Positions 7,352-56,545 are shown, counted from the first letter of the stretch. The stretch: 64,000 nucleotides of DNA from Bacilli bacterium (GCA_016295795.1 JAEDKN010000001.1:6845-70844); one strand, 5' to 3'. Program-made: numbers and translations. The notes: a model not told the origin generated them from the letters alone.

Positions 7352-7882
7352 CTAAAAATATTTATCTATTATTTCCTTGATAAAAGATTTATATTCAACT
7401 TCTTCTATTTTTTCTTCATCTTCCTCCATCAAACATAACGGTGGAAAAAGAACACACCACCAATTATCTCCCTCTGCTTCTCCTAGAGTAATTACTAAGG
7501 ACTCATAAAATCCCTCATTATAGGTAATACCTTTATATTTTTTTTCAGGAAAATAGTTATATCCATAATTAACCTGAAATTTATTACTTGTTTTATTTTT
7601 TTCCATAACTTTTTCAACTGTGTATTTGACATTCCCAAGATTTTGATTTAGTATTTCCCTTACTTCTTCAATGCTATTAGCTTCTTTTAACATTTCCGAC
7701 AATTGAAGTTGAATAGACTTTCTTACATTTTGTTTTAATTTTTGATCCTCTTTCGAATTGCTGGATGCAATTACTCTTATTCTGATAGAGTCATTTGGGA
7801 TAATAATTTCTTCTTTTGAATTGTTATTACTCAAAATTATGACAGTTATAATAGCCATTATTATCAATAAAACTTTTTTCAT
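7352..7882 (-). CDS. spoIIR: Stage II sporulation protein R (SpoIIR)
   Basis: A signal peptide, then IRIRVIASSNSKEDQKLKQNVRKSI, and a C-terminal GDNWWCVLFPPLC block. These are the SpoIIR hallmarks, and the gene sits next to prmC-prfA as in B. subtilis. Confidence 0.8.
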   Translation of the reverse strand: MKKVLLIIMAIITVIILSNNNSKEEIIIPNDSIRIRVIASSNSKEDQKLKQNVRKSIQLQLSEMLKEANSIEEVREILNQNLGNVKYTVEKVMEKNKTSNKFQVNYGYNYFPEKKYKGITYNEGFYESLVITLGEAEGDNWWCVLFPPLCLMEEDEEKIEEVEYKSFIKEIIDKYF

Positions 7883-9899: not shown

Positions 9900-10346
9900 C
9901 TATTCTTCTATTTCAAGTTCGTCTTCATCAAGAATAACTAAATCTTTAAGATCATCATCTGAATCATCAAAATCATCTTCATCAGTATCCAAATCATAAT
10001 CATTTTCTTCTTCATAATCGTCCTTTGACTTAGCAACAGAATCTTCGTTGTCAATTTCATCATCATCATCAACAACAGTTACTACTTTATCAGAGGTATG
10101 CCTTGTTCTTAAATCCCAATTTCCATCCTCTAATAAAACAAATCTTTTATCTGTTGTTAACATTGTATAATAATCCCCTATTTTGTTATCAAACACATTA
10201 CTAGGTAATTCCAACATTTCAACTATCTTTCTAAATAAATTAGCAGTATTATCACTACCATATTCTTCCAATAATAAATTTGTAATGTCTTTATATGATA
10301 ATAATTCTAATTCGTCTTTTTTCATGTTTTTTATACTCATATACAT
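9900..10346 (-). CDS. rpoE: DNA-directed RNA polymerase delta subunit
   Basis: An N-terminal HARE-HTH-like domain (ELLSYKDITNLLLEE...) followed by a long poly-acidic D/E tail. This architecture is diagnostic of RpoE delta. Confidence 0.8.
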   Translation of the reverse strand: MYMSIKNMKKDELELLSYKDITNLLLEEYGSDNTANLFRKIVEMLELPSNVFDNKIGDYYTMLTTDKRFVLLEDGNWDLRTRHTSDKVVTVVDDDDEIDNEDSVAKSKDDYEEENDYDLDTDEDDFDDSDDDLKDLVILDEDELEIEE

Positions 10347-10449: not shown

Positions 10450-10800
10450 TTATTTTATTATTTCTACTTTATAATTTATTTTTTCTTCTTCTTTTAACAT
10501 ATATTTTACTTCATATGTTGTTTTATTATTTATAATTTCTAATATTTTAATCTTATCGCTTACTTCTCTATTTAGATCTTTTAAAAAAACATTTGTAGTT
10601 GCTTGTAGAAAATTTAATGTTATTAAATACTCTGGTGTTTCTCTTCTCAATACGTTCTCATCCATGTTAAGAATCACCTTTATATCGTTTGATTCATCGT
10701 AAATTAGTATATTTCTTTTTTCATCTAATATTCCATAAGTTTCAAAATTTAATATTTCTTCAGAATTTATCAATTCCACTCTAATTTTTACATTTATCAT
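10450..10800 (-). CDS. Hypothetical protein (possibly DUF1934/YwiB-like)
   Basis: A 116-aa ORF with a clean coding signal. I have no motif that I can name with confidence. Confidence 0.35.
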   Translation of the reverse strand: MINVKIRVELINSEEILNFETYGILDEKRNILIYDESNDIKVILNMDENVLRRETPEYLITLNFLQATTNVFLKDLNREVSDKIKILEIINNKTTYEVKYMLKEEEKINYKVEIIK

Positions 10801-13499: not shown

Positions 13500-13814
13500 A
13501 TGAATAATGGTTATTACAGACAGGATTCATACGAACCAGCATATATGCCTGTACAAAACAATATACCAAGCATGCCAATTGAACCAAGCAACAGCGAGAG
13601 TAAATATCAATATGCTGAAGCAGTTATAAATTCAAATATTGGAAGGAAAGCTTCAATACATATGTCGTTTCCAGATTCTATTGAATGGAGAGATAAGATA
13701 TTTAATGGAATAATTGAAGCCTCTGGTAAAGATTACATATTAATCAAAGACGAGCAAAACAAACAATTCCTATTATGGAATATATATATTAACTTTATTG
13801 AATTTAATGACTAA
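13500..13814 (+). CDS. GerQ-like spore coat protein (putative)
   Basis: An N/Q/P-rich N-terminus followed by a C-terminal block, MSFPDSIEWRDKIFNGIIEASGKDYILIKDEQNKQFLLWNIYINFIEF, that resembles the GerQ (YwdL) domain. Confidence 0.4.
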   Translation: MNNGYYRQDSYEPAYMPVQNNIPSMPIEPSNSESKYQYAEAVINSNIGRKASIHMSFPDSIEWRDKIFNGIIEASGKDYILIKDEQNKQFLLWNIYINFIEFND

Positions 13815-13854: not shown

Positions 13855-14427
13855 ATGTTCATAATAAGAGGTGATTGGATGTTATATATTTATTTGACAA
13901 TAGGTTTTGTTTTCTTCATAATTATAATAGCAATTTGTATACACAATCAAATTATGAATATTGAAAAAATCCAGATTAAAATTAACGAAGCAGAAAATAA
14001 TATAAATATTTTGTTAGAAAAAAAATTAAACCTACTTAGTAACATATCAAAAACTATAAATGCTAAAAACAAAGAAAAAGTATTAGTAGAATTACCAAAA
14101 ATAAAAAACAAAAAACTGGAGATATTTGACCTTATAAATGAATCAAGCAAATTAAATAAAGAATTAAATAATTTTATTGAAGATAACAATTACATTTTAT
14201 CAGACGAAGAAGATAGTTTAATGAAAGATTTATATAACACAAATTTGGAAATAAACGCCATAATAGATTATTATAATTTAAATTCAGATTTATATAATAA
14301 AACAATTAAAAAGCCAACTTATCTTTTTACAAGAATAATAAAAAGATTTGTTAAAAAAGAAAAAATATTAGTAGAAAAAGAAGTTGAGTTTGAAATATTA
14401 AAACAAAATAATAATGATAATAGCTAG
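13855..14427 (+). CDS. LemA family membrane protein (putative)
   Basis: A single N-terminal TM helix, then a helical region (NQIMNIEKIQIKINEAENNINILLEKKLNLLSNISKTI) that matches the LemA pattern. Confidence 0.4.
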   Translation: MFIIRGDWMLYIYLTIGFVFFIIIIAICIHNQIMNIEKIQIKINEAENNINILLEKKLNLLSNISKTINAKNKEKVLVELPKIKNKKLEIFDLINESSKLNKELNNFIEDNNYILSDEEDSLMKDLYNTNLEINAIIDYYNLNSDLYNKTIKKPTYLFTRIIKRFVKKEKILVEKEVEFEILKQNNNDNS

Positions 14428-22559: not shown

Positions 22560-22838
22560 TTAAGATTTATATCGTAATTTTTTCGTTTTTCTATTTCCTA
22601 CCAGAAAACCTAATAAAATTGATATCAAAAAGTATACATGAACTACTCCATCATTTATCAACACCAATAACCAAAAATATAGCGTTGTATTTATTAAAAG
22701 AAACAAAATCGCAATTATTAATCTTAAATATTTTTTTATTTTAAAAATCACTTTATAAAAAACATTAAAGATCAAGGAAAAGAACATCCCAAAGAGGAAA
22801 GACATAACCAGAGATTGTAGCTGTATTTCTAATTTCAT
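22560..22838 (-). CDS. yabQ: Spore cortex biosynthesis protein YabQ (membrane)
   Basis: A 92-aa protein with three TM helices, immediately downstream of yabP with a 1-nt overlap. Confidence 0.6.
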   Translation of the reverse strand: MKLEIQLQSLVMSFLFGMFFSLIFNVFYKVIFKIKKYLRLIIAILFLLINTTLYFWLLVLINDGVVHVYFLISILLGFLVGNRKTKKLRYKS

Positions 22839-23131
22839 TATTTAAATAACCTATTGAAAATACTGTTTTCTTTATTTTTAGTTTTATGATCTTCAACATA
22901 TGTAAAAGAGATAATCAAACCCTTTATAGAGACATTTCCTTGCATGGTATCTAATTTTACTAATTCCAAATCAGTCCCTTTTATTACTAGGTATCCCATA
23001 GTTGTTTCTAGTAAAAATTCTTCACTGTCAAAATTTTCTATTTTTTTTACACCTGTTACTATTAAATTTTTTCTTTCAACCATATTAATACCATGATTAT
23101 AATTACCAACCAAGTTATCTACCTTGTCCAT
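22838..23131 (-). CDS. yabP: Sporulation protein YabP
   Basis: A 97-aa protein with LIVTGVKKIENFDSEEFLLETTMGYLVIKGTDLEL, the YabP family pattern. Confidence 0.7.
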   Translation of the reverse strand: MDKVDNLVGNYNHGINMVERKNLIVTGVKKIENFDSEEFLLETTMGYLVIKGTDLELVKLDTMQGNVSIKGLIISFTYVEDHKTKNKENSIFNRLFK

Positions 23132-23206: not shown

Positions 23207-23485
23207 CTACTCTTCTTCGCTTGAATCTTCTTCTGCTTTTTCATAAGCTTCAAAGATAGCTTTTTCAAACATTGTTCTAACTTCTGGATTAATAGGATGT
23301 GCTATATCACGATAACCTCCAACTGCAGTTTTTCTACTTGGCATTGCAATAAACAAACCATTATCTCCTTCAATTATTCTAATGTCGTGAACAGCAAAAC
23401 TGTCATCAATCAATACTGATGCGATTCCTTTCATACGTGATCCTTCTTTTTCGATCTTACGTACATTTACTGATGTAATCTTCAT
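23207..23485 (-). CDS. spoVG: Septation protein SpoVG
   Basis: [53 protein letters not shown] trimmed the start to MKIT, since the ORF-track start adds 9 unlikely residues. Confidence 0.9.
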
Positions 23486-23559
23486 TCGCATATCCTCCCT
23501 CTCACAAAGCATAACACTCTATAAATATATATTATAATAATTTATTTGAAAAATCAATA

Positions 23560-23781
23560 TTATTTTACAAAAATTTCCAGACTATCTGTTAATACATCAC
23601 TATAAGTAAAACTTTTCAATTGATTGTTTTTATCGTTTGTTCTTATTATAAAAATATAATTATATGTATTTTCTATAGTTCCAGAAAACTCTTCTATTTG
23701 ATTCCTACTACCATTAAATCTAAATTGAAGTTCTTTTCCTTTACTTTGTTCCAATTGCATTTTAATCTTTTTTATGTTCAT
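23560..23781 (-). CDS. veg: Veg protein (DUF1021), a biofilm and sporulation-associated small protein
   Basis: A 73-aa protein matching the Veg family pattern (LQFRFNGSRNQIEEFSGTIENTYNYIFIIR...FTYSDVLT). It sits between yabG and spoVG. Confidence 0.7.
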   Translation of the reverse strand: MNIKKIKMQLEQSKGKELQFRFNGSRNQIEEFSGTIENTYNYIFIIRTNDKNNQLKSFTYSDVLTDSLEIFVK

Positions 23782-24563
23782 CTAGGATACCCCGTATACA
23801 TCATTCCATTAGTAATAATACCACCCATACCTTCCTCTTTATATTTTGTTCTAGAAATAATTTTGATGATATCTATAGGCTTATCTCTTGTCGAAAGTGC
23901 AATTGAAGTTGCAATTATGGCAGGATCTAGAGCATGAATATTTACTCTTTTTGGACTACTAGCAAAATTAGCCCCTGCCTTAATTAAACTTTCATAATCA
24001 GATTGACATGCACCAGCTATTACAATTAGTTTGTCTTGGGATTTTTCATATTCTCTGGCTTTTTTTACTGCTTCAACAAAGAATTTACTATTTCTATAAT
24101 TATTTAAATTATTAAAGTCTTGCCTATTTTTATAAAAAAAATCATGTCCAGTAACAATTACAATATCTGGTTTTAATTCCTTTAAATATCGTTCTATTTC
24201 CATAGAAATGACCTCTTCCTTTAAAACGATACCATATGCTTGTACTTTCATTTTTTTATAAAATTTCATACATCTCTCAAGATATTCATCATCACCATCT
24301 ATATGCAAAACTTTTCCAGGTAAATAAAAAAACTCATTTCTATCTAAATCAAGTATTTCGTTCATTTTTTCTACAAAATCATCATCTTTGTCTGTATCGT
24401 TTTCCACCCTCGCTAGTTTTAAATCATCTATCGTACTGTCAGCATAAAGCCTAACATCCACGCCCTTCAGATAAACTAGCGAATCTTCAATTCCAATAAT
24501 CTTAAATAAAGTATCATTATTATAAGAATTTCTTGTAACTAGATCTCCAATTTTAAAAAGCAT
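23778..24563 (-). CDS. yabG: Sporulation-specific protease YabG (peptidase U57)
   Basis: MLFKIGDLVTRNSYNNDTLFKIIGIED N-terminus, and a position immediately downstream of rsmA (ksgA), as in B. subtilis ksgA-yabG-veg. Confidence 0.8.
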   Translation of the reverse strand: MLFKIGDLVTRNSYNNDTLFKIIGIEDSLVYLKGVDVRLYADSTIDDLKLARVENDTDKDDDFVEKMNEILDLDRNEFFYLPGKVLHIDGDDEYLERCMKFYKKMKVQAYGIVLKEEVISMEIERYLKELKPDIVIVTGHDFFYKNRQDFNNLNNYRNSKFFVEAVKKAREYEKSQDKLIVIAGACQSDYESLIKAGANFASSPKRVNIHALDPAIIATSIALSTRDKPIDIIKIISRTKYKEEGMGGIITNGMMYTGYPR

Positions 24564-34735: not shown

Positions 34736-35623
34736 TTAATATTTTATTTGTAGTATTTCTAATATTCTATTCAAATCTCTATCATTAGTAAAAGATATTT
34801 CTATTTTTTTGCTGCTTATTCTCACTTTTGTTCCTAATTTTTCAGAAATATTTTCTTCCAAATATTTATATTGAGGATCCTTTTTATTAATTTTTATTTT
34901 ATGATTCTTTTCAACACCGTTTTTTTGTGATATTGCTTCTATATCTCTAACATTTAATTTTTCATCAACAATCTTATTAGCTAGGTTAATTATTTCTTCC
35001 TTATCTCTAATTTTGCTTAATACCCTCGCATGACTCATTGATATTTTCTCAGAAGCAATCATTTCCTTTACTTCATCCGGCAAATTTAAAAGGCCTAACA
35101 TATTTGTTATATGACTACGACTTTTGCCAAGTTTCAACGCTAATTCTTCTTGGGTTATTTTTAATGTATCTATAAGTTTTTGATAAGCACCGGCTTCTTC
35201 TATAGAATTTAAATTTTCTCTTTGTAAATTTTCTAGAAGAGCTATTTCCATCATATCTTCATCTGAAAAATCTCTAATTATAGCAGGAATTGTTTCCCTG
35301 CCTGCCAAAAGAGAAGCTCTATACCTTCTTTCACCAGCGATTATTTCATAACCCTTAATACTCCTTTTTACAATTATTGGTTGGAATACTCCATGTTCTT
35401 TTATTGAATTAGATAATTCTTCTAACTTTGATTCATCAAAAACCTTTCTTGGTTGATATGGGTTTGGTCTAAGTTCCGACAACTTAATTTCTGTAATTTC
35501 TTCTTTTGGAGTAGTACTTACTATTTTTTCCTCAAATTTATTTAGATCTAGTTGTTCATTATTAAAAAGTTCTTCTAATCCCATTCCAAGGGCTCTTCTT
35601 TTAATTTGTTCCATTTCTTTCAA
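34736..35623 (-). CDS. spo0J: Chromosome partitioning protein ParB/Spo0J
   Basis: ELRPNPYQPRK ParB box I, GERRYRAS box II, and an HTH. Confidence 0.92.
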   Translation of the reverse strand: MKEMEQIKRRALGMGLEELFNNEQLDLNKFEEKIVSTTPKEEITEIKLSELRPNPYQPRKVFDESKLEELSNSIKEHGVFQPIIVKRSIKGYEIIAGERRYRASLLAGRETIPAIIRDFSDEDMMEIALLENLQRENLNSIEEAGAYQKLIDTLKITQEELALKLGKSRSHITNMLGLLNLPDEVKEMIASEKISMSHARVLSKIRDKEEIINLANKIVDEKLNVRDIEAISQKNGVEKNHKIKINKKDPQYKYLEENISEKLGTKVRISSKKIEISFTNDRDLNRILEILQIKY

Positions 35624-36392
35624 TCACTTCCTTTGCTAAATTTAAGTAAGCTTCTGTACCTTTACTCTTTGGATCATAAACAACAATTGGTTTTCCATGA
35701 GAAGGAGCTTCCGTTAACCTTATTAATCTTGGAATAATTGTATTATATACTCTCTCTTTAAAATACTTCCTTATATCTTCTACAACTTCAAATCCCAAAT
35801 TAGTTCTAGAATCAAGCATTGTTAATAACACTCCCTCTATATCTAAATTAGGATTTAAACTTTTTTGTGCCATCATTATTGTATTTAACAATTGCATTAT
35901 TCCTTCTAGTGCAAAAAATTCACATTGTACAGGAATAATAACTGAGTTTGATGCGGTAAGCGCATTTGTAGTAATAAGACCTAATGATGGTGGACAATCC
36001 ATTATTATGTAATCATAGTTGTCCTTTACTGTTTCTATTTTATTCTTCAACTGACCGCCTTTACTAAAAGCTGGTTCTTCTCTACTTTTTTCAATTAATT
36101 CAATATCTATACCTGCCAAATTTATGGTTGCTGGTAAAACATCTAATCTTTTATATTTGGTCCTGATAATAGCTTCATCGATTGAACATTTATCAGTTAA
36201 CACATCATAAACACTTTTGTCTATATCTCCTTTGCTTACACCAATTCCAGTCGTCGCGTTTCCTTGAGGATCTAAATCTACTAAAAGAACTTTTTTACCC
36301 AAAACTGCTAAAGATGCAGAAAGATTTATACTTGTTGTTGTTTTTCCAACGCCGCCTTTTTGATTAACTAATGAAATTATCTTTCCCATCAT
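35601..36392 (-). CDS. soj: Chromosome partitioning ATPase ParA/Soj
   Basis: A deviant Walker A motif, NQKGGVGKTTT. Confidence 0.95.
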   Translation of the reverse strand: MMGKIISLVNQKGGVGKTTTSINLSASLAVLGKKVLLVDLDPQGNATTGIGVSKGDIDKSVYDVLTDKCSIDEAIIRTKYKRLDVLPATINLAGIDIELIEKSREEPAFSKGGQLKNKIETVKDNYDYIIMDCPPSLGLITTNALTASNSVIIPVQCEFFALEGIMQLLNTIMMAQKSLNPNLDIEGVLLTMLDSRTNLGFEVVEDIRKYFKERVYNTIIPRLIRLTEAPSHGKPIVVYDPKSKGTEAYLNLAKEVIERNGTN

Positions 36393-36504: not shown

Positions 36505-37707
36505 TTAATCTTTATCTACTCTAATTACTATTTGGTAAAAATCCTCAAAATCAAATTCTTCTACTTCTATCTTACTTCCAGATTTTTTAATATTTTCTAT
36601 TGTATCTTTTATCTTATTAACCGTCAAACTTACATCTTTTTTCTCCTTTGATGGTTGTGAAGACACTATATCATTAATATTAGGGAAGAATTGATTATTA
36701 TTCACATCATCACTATTCTTTTTAGTCTCAACTGGCATAGCAGAAAAATTCTTATATAAATTATTTTCAAAACCAATATTATTTGATTGCTGAGTCTCTT
36801 GTGTAGGTTGTTTTACTGTCTCCTCAAGACTCATTCCAGCCAAAAGACCACTTCCACCAATAATTTCTTCTTTTGGCATATTTGAATTAGAATTCATTGC
36901 GTTATCCAAACTTTGTCCATAGCCATTATCAATTGGCCTTAAAATTTGAGACATATCTGTAATTTGCGAATCATTATTGTTTGATATATTTTCAGGATTG
37001 CTATGAATTTTATCAACTTCTACTTCTAGAGGTTCTATATTGCTAAATGATTGAGGGTTAAAAATAGACTGATTATCATTTTTTATATTATTATCTTCTT
37101 TTCCGTTTTCTACGGTTTCTCTTTTTATTTCTTCATCCAATTCGCGAACAGTCATTCGGCTAGATATTACTTTTCTTAAAAGTTCAACTTGTTTTTGTGG
37201 ATCCTCAACGTTTAAAAGACTTCTTGCGTGGCGCTCAGATATTTGCTCATGCAAAAGGGCATCTTGTACCTCATCTGTCAATGACAGCAATCTTAATTTG
37301 TTTGAAACTGCTGATTGAGACTTTCCCATAGTTTTAGCTAATTCTTCTTGAGTAAGAGCATCTAATTCTAAGATTTTCTGATATGTCCTTGCTTCCTCTA
37401 TTGGTGTTAAATCTTTTCTTTGCAAATTTTCAATTAATGCAACTTTTGAACTTTCTTTATCATCTAAATTTTTAATTATAGCCGGAATCTTTGTTAACCC
37501 TGCCATAGTTGATGCTTTATATCTTCTTTCTCCAGCAATTATTTCATATTTTTCACCAATTTGCCTTACAACAATAGGTTGAATAACTCCATGTTCTTTT
37601 ATTGAAACAGCAAGTTCCTTTAATGCCTGTTCATCAAAATTTTCTCTTGGTTGAAATCTATTCGGTATAATATCATCTAGATATAAATATCTTACCTCAT
37701 TTTCCAT
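36505..37707 (-). CDS. noc: Nucleoid occlusion protein Noc (ParB paralogue) with an unusually long low-complexity C-terminal extension
   Basis: It sits between soj and rsmG, the noc position. The ParB N-domain carries IIPNRFQPRE and GERRYKAS motifs, with an HTH. Residues from about 200 to 400 are N/S/Q-rich and low-complexity. Confidence 0.75.
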   Translation of the reverse strand: MENEVRYLYLDDIIPNRFQPRENFDEQALKELAVSIKEHGVIQPIVVRQIGEKYEIIAGERRYKASTMAGLTKIPAIIKNLDDKESSKVALIENLQRKDLTPIEEARTYQKILELDALTQEELAKTMGKSQSAVSNKLRLLSLTDEVQDALLHEQISERHARSLLNVEDPQKQVELLRKVISSRMTVRELDEEIKRETVENGKEDNNIKNDNQSIFNPQSFSNIEPLEVEVDKIHSNPENISNNNDSQITDMSQILRPIDNGYGQSLDNAMNSNSNMPKEEIIGGSGLLAGMSLEETVKQPTQETQQSNNIGFENNLYKNFSAMPVETKKNSDDVNNNQFFPNINDIVSSQPSKEKKDVSLTVNKIKDTIENIKKSGSKIEVEEFDFEDFYQIVIRVDKD

Positions 37708-43416: not shown

Positions 43417-43755
43417 TTATTTCTCCTTTTGGTTTATTTTCTTTATTAGAAATATAAAATTTTGTTCTAAATTGCTAAAATCAATTTCTAAACAAGCTTT
43501 CCTTAATATTATAATATAATCTAAATTTTTTTTGTAGTATTTTTTATTGTTGTCAATAATATTTCTTATTCTTCTTTTATATTTATTTCGATAAACCGCA
43601 TTACCTATTTTTTTTCCAACAGATATTCCAAAACGATATTTATCAAGATTATTTTTTTTATAATATATAATAAAATATTTATTTTTAATTTTCTCTCCTG
43701 TATTCAATATACTATTAAATTCATAATTTTTTTTAACTATATTGTTTTTTTTCAT
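43417..43755 (-). CDS. rnpA: Ribonuclease P protein component
   Basis: A 112-aa basic protein. KKNYEFNSIL...RNKYKRRIRN matches the RnpA RNR-like motif region. Confidence 0.9.
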   Translation of the reverse strand: MKKNNIVKKNYEFNSILNTGEKIKNKYFIIYYKKNNLDKYRFGISVGKKIGNAVYRNKYKRRIRNIIDNNKKYYKKNLDYIIILRKACLEIDFSNLEQNFIFLIKKINQKEK

Positions 43756-43822
43756 AGGGTTACTCCTTTTTCAATATACAAATATATTATATCAAAAAAA
43801 AAGCCACATTTACAGTGGAATA

Positions 43823-43942
43823 TTAAACTAATTTTTTTCGTCCTTTTTTTCTACGATTATTAATTACTTTACCTTTTATTCTCGAAAAAAATCCATGTTT
43901 CTTTGCTTTTTTTCTATTATTTGGTTGATACGTTCTTTTCAT
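43823..43942 (-). CDS. rpmH: 50S ribosomal protein L34 (missed by the ORF track because it is under 60 aa)
   Basis: My hand translation of the minus strand gives [39 protein letters not shown] (39 aa). This is the canonical L34 sequence, positioned just upstream of rnpA. Confidence 0.93.
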
Positions 43943-43955
43943 TTCTACACCTCCA

Positions 43956-44246
43956 AACTAAAGTCTCTCCTATTATAATAGTCTTATATACTCTTTGTCA
44001 ATCAATTTTTTAATTTTATTTATTCCACAAAATTAACAACGCTGTTGAAATTTTTTTCAATAGTTGTTTATTTAAATTTGTGGAAAATGTGGAAAATTGA
44101 TTATTTTTCTTGTTAATTAGGGTTTTTATTGTGAATAATTCTGTGACTTTGTTGTTAATAAAATTTTATTTTACATTTATTCTTTATTTTTTCAACAACT
44201 TAAGTTACAATATCAATAGATTTACAATTCTTTTATCCAGGGGGCG
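43956..44246. promoter_or_regulatory. oriC upstream module: a DnaA-box cluster between rpmH and dnaA
   Basis: TGTGGAAAA (rc TTTTCCACA) occurs twice in tandem at 44068-44076 and 44077-44085. TGTGAATAA (rc TTATTCACA) is at 44131-44139. Weaker boxes are at about 44011 (TTATTCCACA) and 44232 (TTATCCAGG). The position relative to dnaA is conserved. Confidence 0.6.
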
Positions 44247-44255
44247 GTGATAAAA

Positions 44256-45626
44256 ATGGATGAGAAAAAAATTTGGAGTACTGTTCTTTCTAAAATCAAA
44301 GAAGAAATTAATTCTTTATCTTTTCAAACGTGGTTTGAGGAAACAGAATTATACAGATTAGATAAAAATGTAGCGAAAATTATTGTCCCTTATGCAATAC
44401 ATAAAAACCATATTATGAATAATTACCACGATATAATCGTAGAAAATCTATATGAGTTAACCAAAGTTACATATGAACTAGAATTATTATTAAAAGAAGA
44501 TATTAAAGAAGATAAAATTGAGAATATTAAAGAAATAAATAATTTTAATACCGAAACCGTCAGCATAGAAAATAATTTTATTGATTCAAATTTAAATTCA
44601 AAATATACATTTGAAAATTTTATAGTAGGGAATAGTAACAAATTTGCACATGCTGCTGCATTAGCTGTTGCTGAAAACCCTGGTAAGATGTATAATCCAC
44701 TATTTATTTATGGAAATAGCGGACTAGGTAAAACACATTTAATGCATGCTATTGGCAATTATATAGTAAAAAATAGTAACAAAAAAGTGTTATATGTTAC
44801 CAGCGAACAATTTGTTTCAGATTTTATAGGAATTAATAAAAAGGATGAAAGTGGAACAAATTTCAGCTATGTGGACTTTTTTAAACAGAAATACAGAAAT
44901 ATTGATGTTCTCATTATAGACGATATACAATATTTAGGTGGTGCAACCGAAACACAAAAGGAGTTTTTTCATACTTTTAATACTTTATATGGAGATAATA
45001 AGCAAATTATAATTTCTTCAGATAGATCTCCAGATGATTTAAAAATTTTAGAGGATCGTTTAAGAACTAGATTCTGTTGGGGATTACCCGTTGATATATA
45101 TCCTCCAGATTTTGAACTTAGAGTTGCAATATTAAAAAAACGCATTCTTGGTGAAGCCATAAACAAGGAAATACCAGAACAAGTAATAGAATATATGGCT
45201 TCAAATTTAGGTAGTGATATTAGACAACTCGAAGGTGCAGTTACTAGATTGGTAGCTTATTCAACAATTATGGGATCTGAAATTGATTTAAATCTTGCGA
45301 TGGAAGCATTAAAAGATTATATAAATAAAGGTATAAGTGAAAAAAATAACGTAAACAAAATTCAAAAAGTTGTGGCAGAATATTTTCAAATTTCTGTCGA
45401 AGATTTGAAATCAAAAAAAAGAAATTCTAATATTTCATTTCCACGACAAATTGCAATGTACCTGTGCAGAAAATTTACTGATGAATCTTTTCCTAAAATA
45501 GGTATAGAATTTGGAGGAAAAGATCATTCAACTGTTATGCATTCATGTGAAAAAATTGAAAAGGAAATTAGAATTAACAAAGATTTAGCAGATACAATAG
45601 ACAAATTACAAAAAGAAATTCACTAA
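44256..45626 (+). CDS. dnaA: Chromosomal replication initiator DnaA
   Basis: A Walker A motif GNSGLGKTHL, an AAA+ sensor region, and a C-terminal DNA-binding domain (ISFPRQIAMYLCRKFT). I favour the start MDEKKIWS at 44256 (the ORF track gives 44247). Confidence 0.96.
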   Translation: MDEKKIWSTVLSKIKEEINSLSFQTWFEETELYRLDKNVAKIIVPYAIHKNHIMNNYHDIIVENLYELTKVTYELELLLKEDIKEDKIENIKEINNFNTETVSIENNFIDSNLNSKYTFENFIVGNSNKFAHAAALAVAENPGKMYNPLFIYGNSGLGKTHLMHAIGNYIVKNSNKKVLYVTSEQFVSDFIGINKKDESGTNFSYVDFFKQKYRNIDVLIIDDIQYLGGATETQKEFFHTFNTLYGDNKQIIISSDRSPDDLKILEDRLRTRFCWGLPVDIYPPDFELRVAILKKRILGEAINKEIPEQVIEYMASNLGSDIRQLEGAVTRLVAYSTIMGSEIDLNLAMEALKDYINKGISEKNNVNKIQKVVAEYFQISVEDLKSKKRNSNISFPRQIAMYLCRKFTDESFPKIGIEFGGKDHSTVMHSCEKIEKEIRINKDLADTIDKLQKEIH

Positions 45627-45766
45627 ATTGTTGAAAAAAAATATATATTAACATTTTTTCCACAAATTAAAATTTTCTCAAAGACCTAAAATTAAAGAAA
45701 AATTATAGTTATTAACAGTTTCCACTGTAATAATATTAAAAATATATTAAGAAAGAAGGAATAATT
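45627..45766. promoter_or_regulatory. oriC downstream module: an AT-rich unwinding region plus a DnaA box between dnaA and dnaN
   Basis: A TTTTCCACA box at 45656-45664. A near-pure A/T tract (AAAAAAAATATATATTAACATTTTTT) lies at 45635-45660, and a weaker box, TTTCCACTG, is near 45718. Confidence 0.5.
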
Positions 45767-46891
45767 ATGAAAATTAAAATTAAAAAAGATTTATTATTAG
45801 AAGGGTTAAACAAAGTGTCAAGAGCAATTTCAACAAAAAATTTAATTCCAATATTATCTGGTATTAAATTTGATTTATCTTTAGAAGGATTAACATTAAC
45901 AGCTTCTGACAATGATATTACAATTCAGACTTTTATCCCCATAGAAAACGATAATATGTATATAGAAAAGGAAGGAAGCATAATAATACAAGGAAAATAT
46001 ATATTAGATATAGTACGAAAATTACCAGATGAATATATAAATATAGAAGTAATAGATGAATTAAAAATATTGATATATGCAGAAAATAGTGAATTTAATT
46101 TAAATGGCATAAATAAAAAAGAATATCCTAATATTTCTTTAGAAAATAGTAAGACTTTTGTAAAAATAAACAATAAAGTGTTCAAAACACTGATAAATCA
46201 AACAGCCTTTGCAACATCTAATGATGAATCTAGGCCAATTCTTACTGGTATAAATATAAAAATTACTGGAGATATTTTAGAATGTAGTGCTACAGATTCA
46301 TATAGACTATCAAAAAAACAAGTTAAAATAGATAATGTTACAAATGAAAATTATAACATTATAATACCAGGAAAGAATATAACTGAATTCATTAAAATAT
46401 TAAATGATAACAATAATGATCTTGAGATACATATATTTAATAATAAAGTTTTATTTAAACAAGAAAATCTATTATTTCAATCTAGGTTAGTTAGTGGAAA
46501 TTATCCTAATGTTAACAATTTAATTCCAAATGATTCATTTTTAAAAGTAACTGCTAATTTATCAGATTTATATGATGTCATAGATAGAGCTAGTATTCTA
46601 ACTTCTGATAAAGAAAAAAATATAGTAACATTAGAAACAAATAAAAATGTATTGATTGTAAAATCATCTTCAGCAGAGATTGGTAGAGTTGAGGAAAAAA
46701 TGATAATAAGTAAAGATAATGATGAAGAAATTAAAATTTCTTTTAGTGCAAAATATATGATGGATGCTTTAAAATCTTTTGAAGGTGATATGGTTGAAAT
46801 GTTATTCGTTGGAGAAGTGAAACCAATTATAGTAAAAGATGTTGAAGATCCTAATTTAATTCAATTAGTTTTGCCAATTAGAACTTATTAA
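45767..46891 (+). CDS. dnaN: DNA polymerase III beta sliding clamp
   Basis: At 374 aa with a three-domain clamp pattern, immediately downstream of dnaA. Confidence 0.95.
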   Translation: MKIKIKKDLLLEGLNKVSRAISTKNLIPILSGIKFDLSLEGLTLTASDNDITIQTFIPIENDNMYIEKEGSIIIQGKYILDIVRKLPDEYINIEVIDELKILIYAENSEFNLNGINKKEYPNISLENSKTFVKINNKVFKTLINQTAFATSNDESRPILTGINIKITGDILECSATDSYRLSKKQVKIDNVTNENYNIIIPGKNITEFIKILNDNNNDLEIHIFNNKVLFKQENLLFQSRLVSGNYPNVNNLIPNDSFLKVTANLSDLYDVIDRASILTSDKEKNIVTLETNKNVLIVKSSSAEIGRVEEKMIISKDNDEEIKISFSAKYMMDALKSFEGDMVEMLFVGEVKPIIVKDVEDPNLIQLVLPIRTY

Positions 46892-46918
46892 AAATAACAA
46901 TTTTGTTATTTTTTTTTA
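46892..46918 (+). terminator. Rho-independent terminator of dnaN
   Basis: A hairpin AAATAAC-aatttt-GTTATTT followed by a T9 run. Confidence 0.5.
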
Positions 46919-47035
46919 ATAAATATTACAAATTTCGTTCAAATTCGACAAAGATTTGTGTTATTCTCTTGACGTAATTTTTAAAAATTATAAATTTTAA
47001 ATTTCTAGAAATTTTATATGAAATAGGGGGATTTT

Positions 47036-47497
47036 ATGAATTTTTATGAAATTAATGAAGAAACATTAGCAATAATACCAATTGATTATGAAAAAACAAA
47101 AGTTATTGAATTAAATAACGAATACATTGTAGATAAAAAAGCTTATCAAGTTATGGATGAAAGTTGTCAATATTATGGAAGTACATATAAAGGAAGACTT
47201 ACTGCAGCAAAAAAAATACTAGAATGTGCATACAAAATACCAATATTAGTTGAAGAAACTCAAAGTATTATATTTTTTCCAACTAAATCATCTTTAGAAG
47301 AAGATTGTTGCTGGATTAATTTTAATCAAATAAAAAAAATAGAAAAAAGAAATAATGATACGTTAGTTACTTTTAATAATAATAAAGAAATATTATTTGA
47401 TATTTCTAAGTTATCTATTGAAAATCAAATATCAAGATCAACAAGATTAGGTTATCTAATTCAACAAAGATTAAAAAAACAACAAAATATAAATTAA
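47036..47497 (+). CDS. comK: ComK-family protein (competence transcription factor homologue)
   Basis: ETLAIIP...QVMDESCQYYGSTYKGR...KIPILVEETQSIIFFPTKSSLEEDCCWINFNQIK...NDTLVTFNNNKEILFDISKLSIENQISRSTRL. Each block aligns with a B. subtilis ComK block (ATIAVLP, QIVDRSCRFFGSSYAGR, KPPIMVDPSNQIFLFPTLSS...CGWISHVHVK, DDTEVTFSNGKTMELPISYNSFENQVYRTAWL). Confidence 0.75.
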   Translation: MNFYEINEETLAIIPIDYEKTKVIELNNEYIVDKKAYQVMDESCQYYGSTYKGRLTAAKKILECAYKIPILVEETQSIIFFPTKSSLEEDCCWINFNQIKKIEKRNNDTLVTFNNNKEILFDISKLSIENQISRSTRLGYLIQQRLKKQQNIN

Positions 47498-47607
47498 AAA
47501 GGCAAAAAGCCTTTTTTTAATGAAAAAATATGATATAATTAATATGTATGTATAGGACTACTAAAAGATAGATAAAGGTGAAATTATGGGGTTTTTGAGG
47601 ACTTAAA

Positions 47608-50647
<3,040 letters not shown>

Positions 50648-56328: not shown

Positions 56329-56365
56329 AATAGTTTTTTCTTCATAAAATTAAACAGGTGATTTT

Positions 56366-56545
56366 ATGTTAAAACTAATTAAAAAAATTTTATTTGCAGT
56401 GTTTTTATTATATAGTTTCAATTTGATATCAGTTAATTTTAATATAATAATTCCGATTAATTTTATAACTGTTTTATTAGTTGCTTTACTTGATTTGCCT
56501 GGAATGATAACATTATTAATATCTATGATAACTATATTTAGTTGA
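56366..56545 (+). CDS. bofA: Pro-sigma-K processing inhibitor BofA (59 aa, missed by the ORF track)
   Basis: My hand translation gives MLKLIKKILFAVFLLYSFNLISVNFNIIIPINFITVLLVALLDLPGMITLLISMITIFS*. It has two TM helices and the BofA-like IPIN...G.LG/PG core, with an AGGTG RBS 7 nt upstream. Its position after recR matches the B. subtilis recR-yaaL-bofA arrangement. Confidence 0.6.
   Translation: MLKLIKKILFAVFLLYSFNLISVNFNIIIPINFITVLLVALLDLPGMITLLISMITIFS

Follow-up and report, generated by a model that had tools for sequence, protein, structure and literature searches.

In Bacillus subtilis, the promoter of comK (PcomK) receives many inputs, which include degenerate 0A sites, K-boxes, Rok, CodY, AbrB and DegU. 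The canonical protein, master regulator of competence and the K-state, is required for transformation, is controlled by MecA/ClpCP and ComS, and goes together with K-boxes at its own promoter and at late competence genes. Phosphorylated Spo0A (Spo0A~P) binds this promoter directly, first raising and then repressing expression (PMC3297582). The ComK protein of this species (ComKBsu) requires a C-terminal region of approximately 25 residues for activation at PcomG, and a variant without these 25 residues loses activation while keeping DNA binding (PMC3128618). Natural ComK proteins in which this region is missing or divergent have also been described, namely the ComK2 proteins of Bacillus cereus and Staphylococcus aureus, which are reported to lower competence gene expression: B. 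cereus ComK2 naturally lacks 22 residues and lowers the expression of comG (PMC3128618), and S. aureus ComK2 is reported to repress competence (PMC12491500). The present analysis concerns a gene of the same family in a Bacilli bacterium, found at positions 47036-47497 of a 64,000-nucleotide stretch of its DNA (GCA_016295795.1 JAEDKN010000001.1:6845-70844; hereafter, the window), where it lies between dnaN and recF beside the replication origin, oriC. To our knowledge, nearly all work on ComK comes from Bacillus, Staphylococcus and Listeria.

The usual occupant of the dnaN-recF slot in Firmicutes is YaaA (RlbA), an S4-like RNA-binding protein of approximately 70 residues, which has the position in common with the ComK gene but no sequence or domain relation to its product. 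In B. subtilis, yaaA (BSU00030) groups with dnaA, dnaN and recF (PMC3814617). A preliminary description of the window had assigned a ComK-family gene to this slot, and dnaN and recF are indeed its flanks, with gyrB and gyrA following recF and with rpmH-rnpA-yidC-jag upstream on the opposite strand. The open reading frame (ORF) in the slot is not a YaaA-family protein, as a Pfam domain search returned ComK alone and no S4-like domain. Moreover, a phmmer search of ORFs of at least 40 residues, for which the query was an unconfirmed B. subtilis YaaA sequence, gave no credible S4/YaaA-like ORF in the window or, in 80 related genomes, in the approximately 6 kb around the slot; neither a YaaA remnant nor a displaced yaaA gene was thus found near the slot. 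The GC skew changes from -0.285 in the 40-44 kb bin to +0.168 in the 44-48 kb bin, and because the sign changes at approximately 44 kb and the ComK gene begins at 47.0 kb, the gene lies about 3 kb from the replication origin. DnaA-box-like TTTTCCACA sites are located at 44023, 44079, 44088 and 45658.

The preliminary description had treated this arrangement as peculiar to one genome, but it is lineage-wide and vertically inherited. When each species was represented by one genome, 212 genomes were seen to encode a relative, of which the best 80, with 75% to 44% identity, were retrieved; together with six metagenome contigs that carry the identical protein, these species representatives make up the 86 loci compared here. 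The order jag-yidC-rnpA, dnaA-dnaN-ComK-recF-gyrB-gyrA is present in 86 of the 86 loci, and at least 23 metagenome contigs encode the identical protein in an unchanged gene order. The 80 relatives are uncultured "Bacilli", "Clostridium sp. CAG:710", Candidatus Faecenecus (Bacillota incertae sedis) and a closed 1.31-Mb metagenome-assembled genome, OZ006981.1. Across these genomes, the median identity to the window proteins is 53% for ComK, 51% for RecF, 52% for RnpA and 50% for Jag, and the divergence of ComK correlates with that of RecF (r = 0.83). An alignment of 19 diverse homologues contains 45 invariant positions, and a length of approximately 150 residues is kept across the clade. Because it diverges as RecF does and retains these invariant positions, the ComK gene is a vertically inherited core gene under purifying selection, and neither a recent insertion nor a decaying copy. 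An ancestral insertion that was kept in a rarely rearranged neighborhood is the best reading of its place beside the origin. The lineage-wide placement of a ComK gene in the dnaN-recF slot beside oriC, with no yaaA found nearby, is new; no literature linking comK to dnaN or recF synteny was found.

The 153-residue product, translated from an ATG start codon, matches the Pfam ComK profile (PF06338) with E = 6.7e-42 and 143.3 bits, compared with a cut-off of 22.3. Residues 3-147 correspond to positions 3-152 of the 152 in the profile, i.e., to the entire profile, and all 120 of the 120 homologues listed have PF06338 as well. BLASTP comparison with B. subtilis ComK (COMK_BACSU, confirmed by exact look-up) gives 35% identity and 59% positives over 147 residues (E = 2e-31). 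The family assignment in the preliminary description is therefore upheld by the profile search, and every block that it had aligned between the two proteins, all of which are common to both, is recovered by BLASTP. Its figure of some 40 lost C-terminal residues is too high: the alignment stops at residue 158 of the B. subtilis protein, which is residue 146 of the 153 in the query, and the present protein is shorter by approximately 27 C-terminal and 8 N-terminal residues, with the entire Pfam domain present. A region corresponding to the B. subtilis activation tail is found neither in this protein nor in the clade of proteins of approximately 150 residues. The AlphaFold2 model is confident, with a predicted local distance difference test (pLDDT) score of 85.8 and a predicted template modeling (pTM) score of 0.79, and it consists of a beta-rich core, two helices and a long C-terminal helix (residues 125-152). 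The top structural matches to the model are LytTR DNA-binding domains, including those of AgrA and pneumococcal ComE, and all are weak, with probabilities of 0.96-0.99 but E-values of 0.02-0.3 and TM scores of 0.36-0.59. This modeled resemblance fits a DNA-binding role without being conclusive, and no solved ComK structure was found. Judged by its sequence, the ORF encodes a genuine ComK-family transcription factor, predicted to bind DNA, of a short class of approximately 150 residues.

This short class deserves some attention, since the preliminary description had called the protein a truncated paralogue. Among 1.84 billion cluster representatives, 1,276 ComK-family clusters were found, and the best 150 of these fall into two length classes: a majority of approximately 145-157 residues and a minority of approximately 185-216 residues, the Bacillus type. 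The identity between B. subtilis ComK and the nearest slot protein is 41.6%, and many short ComK proteins are equally distant or more so. The short form is thus a normal, common natural class, the protein spans the whole Pfam profile, and "truncated" is misleading. Nor is "paralogue" supported, as no second ComK-like sequence was found within the window. The short ComK of Exiguobacterium, an outgroup protein annotated as ComK, is encoded not at the origin but next to a two-component system near addB, and it has no box array of the kind described below. This refutes shortness as the cause of the dnaN-recF placement and indicates that the slot is lineage-specific.

When the dnaN-ComK spacers of the 80 species were aligned on the start codon, a recurrent architecture became visible, in which two or three head-to-tail copies of (A/T)TTCGACA(A/T) precede TGnTAnnnT, and an inverted repeat and a ribosome-binding site (RBS) of the GGGGG type come next. 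At least one box is present in 73 of the 80 species, at least two in 60 and three in 27. Successive boxes (n = 87) are separated by 10 bp in 52 cases and by 20 bp in 29, and 136 boxes lie on the coding strand versus 14 on the opposite strand. Tandem box pairs occur at 2.2 per kb in this spacer, whereas the remaining 870 kb of the loci contain 0.018 per kb. In 52 of the 62 scorable species, the distance from the end of the proximal box to the TAnnnT hexamer is exactly 11 bp, and the TGn extension of this hexamer is present in 33. No correctly spaced -35 element was found at the ComK promoter; the second box provides a TCGACA located 21 bp from the -10 element. Of all weight-matrix matches on either strand of the 64-kb window, the box at 46944 scores highest. 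Another candidate promoter, TTGACG-16-TAAATT (46969-46996), scores 9/12 and is not conserved in relatives, and the scan that produced it found 7 promoters versus 8.0 expected; the conserved extended -10 element is therefore preferred.

The sequence TTCGACA is the exact reverse complement (7/7) of the 0A-box core, TGTCGAA. This core with A/T flanks reflects a specificity common to the Spo0A proteins of Bacillus and Clostridioides (PMC3485338), and pairs of 0A boxes with 3-bp spacers have been footprinted (PMC2731898). The ComK gene is thus probably under Spo0A control, and the link to a developmental state raised in the preliminary description gains support from the phased, predicted 0A boxes in nearly all relatives. 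A minimal, rigid ComK promoter with such putative consensus 0A boxes is also new. Concerning the sign of regulation, the missing -35 element and the 21-bp offset of the -35-like TCGACA recall Spo0A-activated sigma-A promoters, of which the spoIIE and spoIIG promoters have spacers of 21-22 bp, and on this ground Spo0A more likely activates than represses the ComK gene. As here, the 0A boxes of these B. subtilis promoters overlap the -35 region and no correctly spaced -35 element is present. Unlike in the spoIIG/spoIIE type, however, the proximal box at the ComK gene lies inside the spacer, at about -30 to -24; activation and repression cannot be told apart from this geometry.

The ComK gene has its own promoter, leader, RBS and terminator (Table 1) and is a stand-alone transcription unit. 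The dnaN-ComK intergenic region measures 144 bp (46892-47035), as previously stated, and the hairpin and T-run at its upstream end make a plausible dnaN terminator; this hairpin was not flagged by our terminator scan because it consists of A/T pairs only and the scan demands G-C pairs. In most species a hairpin lies in the stretch from the -10 element to the RBS (median folding z-score of -3.0, n = 60; 63% below -2), and its stems differ in sequence between subclades, which suggests a structural element, for example a 5' stabilizer, an attenuator or an operator. The palindrome AAATTTCTAGAAATTT is conserved despite the divergence of the surrounding spacer and may be an operator for a dimeric regulator. 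In one subclade (L064, L068, L071-L073, L076 and L080), the leader hairpin contains an inverted DnaA-box-like pair, TTTTCCAC-N6-TGTGGATAA, in a stem of approximately 17 bp, which may be a DnaA operator or a mere RNA/DNA hairpin. Downstream, the ComK terminator and the conserved promoter and leader of recF separate the two genes into distinct units, and with this result, and with a mini-ORF that precedes recF, the earlier suggestion that ComK and recF are coupled is not supported. The mini-ORF, which comprises 5-11 codons and abuts or overlaps the recF start codon (ATGA, GTGA or TTGA), is present in at least 35 species, and the stop-start overlap suggests translational coupling of the mini-ORF to recF. 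The mini-ORF may be what is left of yaaA, or it may encode a regulatory leader peptide. It occupies the last 20-35 nt before recF, and in the ComK-recF spacers outside the window (L007-L086) its product follows the pattern M-[GS]-[IVF]-[FYL]. A search of Rfam over positions 43700-47700, which includes the recF leader, gave no match at E-values up to 1.

Table 1. Positions of the ComK transcription unit, its neighbors and other features in the window
Feature	Position	Strand	Remarks
dnaA	44247-45626	+	Assigned by the Pfam domains that the identical gene shows on L001
dnaN (sliding clamp)	45767-46891	+	Upstream neighbor
Probable dnaN terminator, all-A/T hairpin AAAAATAACAA / TTGTTATTTTT with T-run	46890-46917	+	Inverted repeat with 11-nt arms (46890-46913), 100% complementary
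Degenerate distal 0A-type box, TTCGTTC (2 mismatches)	46934-46940	+	10 bp upstream of the consensus box; phasing as in relatives
Consensus 0A-type box, TTCGACA, with A-rich flanks	46944-46950	+	Weight-matrix score of 14.9
Inferred promoter, extended -10 TGtTATTCT	46959-46967	+	Starts 11 bp downstream of the box; canonical -35 absent
Palindrome TAATTTTTAAAAATTA at the leader start (hairpin or operator)	46975-46990	+	Inverted repeat, 100% complementary; hairpin at this site supported across relatives
Perfect 16-bp palindrome AAATTTCTAGAAATTT in the leader	46999-47014	+	Present in the window and the three closest species (L007, L008, L010)
RBS, AGGGGGA	47025-47031	+	Four bases upstream of the ComK ATG; GGGGG-type RBS conserved in relatives
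ComK-family gene, short class	47036-47497	+	153 residues
Intrinsic terminator AAAAAGGC-AAAAA-GCCTTTTT with T's, after the ComK gene	47496-47518		Scan (47496-47516): 1 found versus 0.0 expected
recF extended -10 promoter TGATATAAT (TGnTATAAT type)	47531-47539	+	Conserved across species
Conserved recF leader element GTATGTATAGGACTA	47546-47560	+	GTATAGGAnTA near the start site
Mini-ORF MGFLRT* with strong RBS	47586-47606	+	Ends 1 nt before the recF ATG
recF	47608-48741	+	Downstream neighbor; overlaps gyrB (48731-50647)
Sporulation gene set	7352-7882, 13500-13814, 22560-23131, 23207-24563, 56330-56510		Last interval approximate

The wider gene content of the window bears on how this promoter might be read. 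Sporulation genes include those for SpoIIR, GerQ, YabP, YabQ, SpoVG, YabG and BofA, with DivIC listed alongside YabP/YabQ, and SpoVT is encoded on the overlapping contig L089 (10936-11442), approximately 4 kb past the end of the window. Since the sporulation-specific genes of SpoIIR, YabG, YabP, YabQ, BofA, GerQ and others lie in the window, as a dense set around the origin, the organism is placed in an endospore-forming lineage. Endospore-forming lineages encode Spo0A, and no spo0A gene is located within the window. The genome has a GC content of approximately 28% and a relative closes at 1.31 Mb, which would be unusually small for an endospore former.

With a probability of roughly 0.6, we read the gene as a short ComK, fixed at dnaN-recF, that is a Spo0A~P-timed regulator of a competence or K-state-type regulon. 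The dnaN-recF slot acquired a ComK gene that became fixed in a single lineage of gut Bacilli, which are uncultured endospore formers with small, low-GC genomes; the unit is ordered from the dnaN terminator through promoter, leader hairpin, strong RBS and ORF to its own terminator. Family membership, position, conservation, unit anatomy and motif arrangement are established by the data; Spo0A as the binder, the direction of its effect and the target regulon are inferred. Spo0A~P would bind one to three head-to-tail 0A boxes with a 10-bp period that overlap the extended -10 promoter, and in this way would set the timing of ComK to the entry into stationary phase or sporulation. The ComK protein would then bind A/T-rich sites and switch a competence or K-state-type regulon on, or possibly off, given the missing activation tail. 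Several points weigh against this reading. The tail that B. subtilis ComK needs for activation is missing here, no late competence genes were found in the 64-kb window, and the window contains a single consensus box, the second carrying two mismatches. In phages phi29 and Nf, 0A boxes that overlap the core promoter repress (PMC2731898), which speaks against activation in particular. Finally, a single substitution separates TTCGACA from the DnaA-box core TCCACA, and the ComK gene lies beside oriC, so that DnaA or another response regulator that binds tandem repeats is a possible binder.

Given the missing C-terminal region, the protein could either activate or repress, and the short ComK might mainly be a repressor or antagonist that, like ComK2 of B. 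cereus or S. aureus, shuts genes down when Spo0A is active instead of activating DNA uptake. The protein has no counterpart to the last 27 or so residues of B. subtilis ComK, and a deletion of similar size in ComKBsu as well as the naturally shorter B. cereus ComK2 and the S. aureus ComK2, all introduced above, provide precedents. However, the short class makes up the majority of the closest 150 representatives and also occurs in Bacillales, as in the annotated ComK of Exiguobacterium, and because it is common, shortness by itself is no sign of repression; in addition, the modeled C-terminal helix could act in oligomerization or activation. A repressor role is hence possible, if somewhat doubtful. 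Another explanation, compatible with Spo0A control as a second input, is that the position itself is functional, in that the copy number and expression of a gene about 3 kb from oriC would rise when initiation outpaces elongation, as in fast growth or replication stress. The distance to the GC-skew switch and the invariance of the position in 80 of 80 species are in line with this explanation, and a precedent is provided by comCDE of Streptococcus pneumoniae, which lies at -1.6 degrees from oriC and whose dosage is raised by antibiotic-induced replication stress, which triggers competence (Slager 2014, as reported in PMC4488948). However, the dnaA-gyrA cluster is so stable that any gene fixed there would remain, whether its position matters or not, and ori:ter ratios may stay low in slow-growing gut anaerobes with 1.3-Mb genomes. 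Simple inheritance in a frozen neighborhood explains the origin position equally well, and we consider the dosage explanation unlikely.

The similarity of the boxes to DnaA boxes requires separate consideration, as the phased TTCGACA copies might be bound by DnaA, at low affinity and off consensus, or by another direct-repeat response regulator, in which case the gene would report replication-initiation status or some other signal. Apart from the one-base difference between TCGACA and TCCACA, such a role would be in keeping with the inverted DnaA-box-like sequences in the leader of one subclade and with TTCGACA copies that lie 10-11 bp away from a true, identically oriented DnaA box in oriC intergenic regions (the rnpA-dnaA and dnaA-dnaN spacers) of L011, L031, L074 and L075. 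Among the 137 boxes upstream of ComK, however, the DnaA-type TTCCACA does not occur, and 79 boxes with A/T flanks read exactly TTCGACA; consensus DnaA boxes are not enriched in the dnaN-ComK spacer, where they occur in 13 of 80 loci, near the background of 0.55 per kb. Hallmarks of Spo0A are seen in the A/T flanks, the 3-bp spacers and the agreement with the 0A core at 7/7 positions, and the inverted pair of the subclade forms part of a longer hairpin. Regulation of the ComK gene through consensus DnaA boxes was accordingly rejected, and binding by DnaA or another regulator in the wider sense seems quite unlikely. Improbable to a still greater degree is the idea that a ComK-fold protein replaced YaaA at the origin as a Spo0A-triggered, origin-tethered switch, which would couple replication or repair status to sporulation rather than serve DNA uptake, for example via A/T-rich DNA near oriC or dnaA-dnaN-recF; such a switch would be analogous in function to the Spo0A-induced SirA of B. 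subtilis, but with a ComK fold. A view of the ORF as a gene remnant in decay, or as an artefact of annotation within an AT-rich spacer, has nothing in its favor except regional AT-richness and can be regarded as refuted by the full-profile PF06338 match, the retained length and invariant residues in 19 species, an evolutionary rate equal to that of RecF, and the presence of a strong RBS, a promoter and a terminator. The preferred reading remains that of a Spo0A~P-timed, short ComK.

Some further observations concern possible targets and the surroundings of the gene. No type-I K-box (paired AAAA-N5-TTTT, up to one mismatch) was found in the window versus 0.43 expected, and a GC content of 28% makes this search uninformative. 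The excess of AT-boxes in the two intergenic regions that flank ComK consists of the A-tract/T-tract pairs of terminators, which confound these searches; no K-box autoregulation was detected by them. Tandem boxes in the oriC spacers were considered as a cross-validation of Spo0A binding and dropped as evidence, because most of them are true DnaA boxes (TTTTCCACA) caught by a search that allowed one mismatch. The pairs of TTCGACA and DnaA boxes in the oriC spacers of the four loci named above recall the arrangement in B. subtilis oriC, for which interleaved Spo0A and DnaA sites have been described. The ComK-recF junction carries insertions in a few species: a TnpB/OrfB-like ORF in L080 (6634-7791), a conserved 152-residue ORF common to L033 (6542-7000) and L056 (6579-7034), and two ORFs without assigned function in L063 (6533-8343). 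Elsewhere in the window, a ParA/Soj gene (35601-36392) lies between two ParB-family genes (34736-35623 and 36505-37707), the second of which is unusually long, with 400 residues and with ParB_N and HTH_ParB within the first 200. The ORFs at 9900-10346, 10450-10800 and 13855-14427 (116-190 residues) gave no Pfam match at E-values up to 0.001.

The finding does not change the understanding of what ComK is. It does place a ComK regulator among the core genes of a large group of gut spore-formers, uncultured and with reduced genomes, in which the control region is unusually simple and readable and the location beside the origin is invariant. If the link to Spo0A is true, these bacteria would offer a minimal Spo0A-to-ComK connection, which in B. 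subtilis is otherwise buried under many regulators. Abundant gut bacteria might then become competent, or arrested in a K-state-like manner, as they near sporulation, and competence at this stage would bear on horizontal gene transfer in the gut. In addition, the origin-side ComK gene parallels pneumococcal comCDE, which leads to a testable gene-dosage hypothesis.

Comparison with these known systems places the gene in perspective. Like the ComK gene of the slot, S. pneumoniae comCDE, a competence master-regulator locus, lies within a few kb of oriC, and its position is described as acting through gene dosage under replication stress (PMC4488948). However, it is a two-component system with a peptide and is unrelated in sequence to ComK, although the DNA-binding domain of ComE is the top, if weak, structural match to the ComK model. 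The ComK2 proteins of B. cereus and S. aureus are second copies beside a canonical ComK1, whereas no second copy of the slot ComK was found in the 64-kb window, and they are neither origin-proximal nor known to have an array of 0A boxes. B. subtilis ComK belongs to the same Pfam family, and the 0A-type boxes of PcomK have been bound experimentally (PMC3297582), whereas those of the slot ComK gene are predicted. The comK genes of Bacillales are encoded elsewhere than beside oriC, as exemplified by Exiguobacterium, and the multi-input promoter of B. subtilis contrasts with the simple, rigid one of the slot, which consists of phased consensus 0A boxes and an extended -10 element. Overall, the nearest counterpart of the slot ComK is, in logic, the Spo0A-to-comK link known from B. 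subtilis and, in form, the short, ComK2-type proteins; it is a known protein family in a new setting and not a new kind of system.

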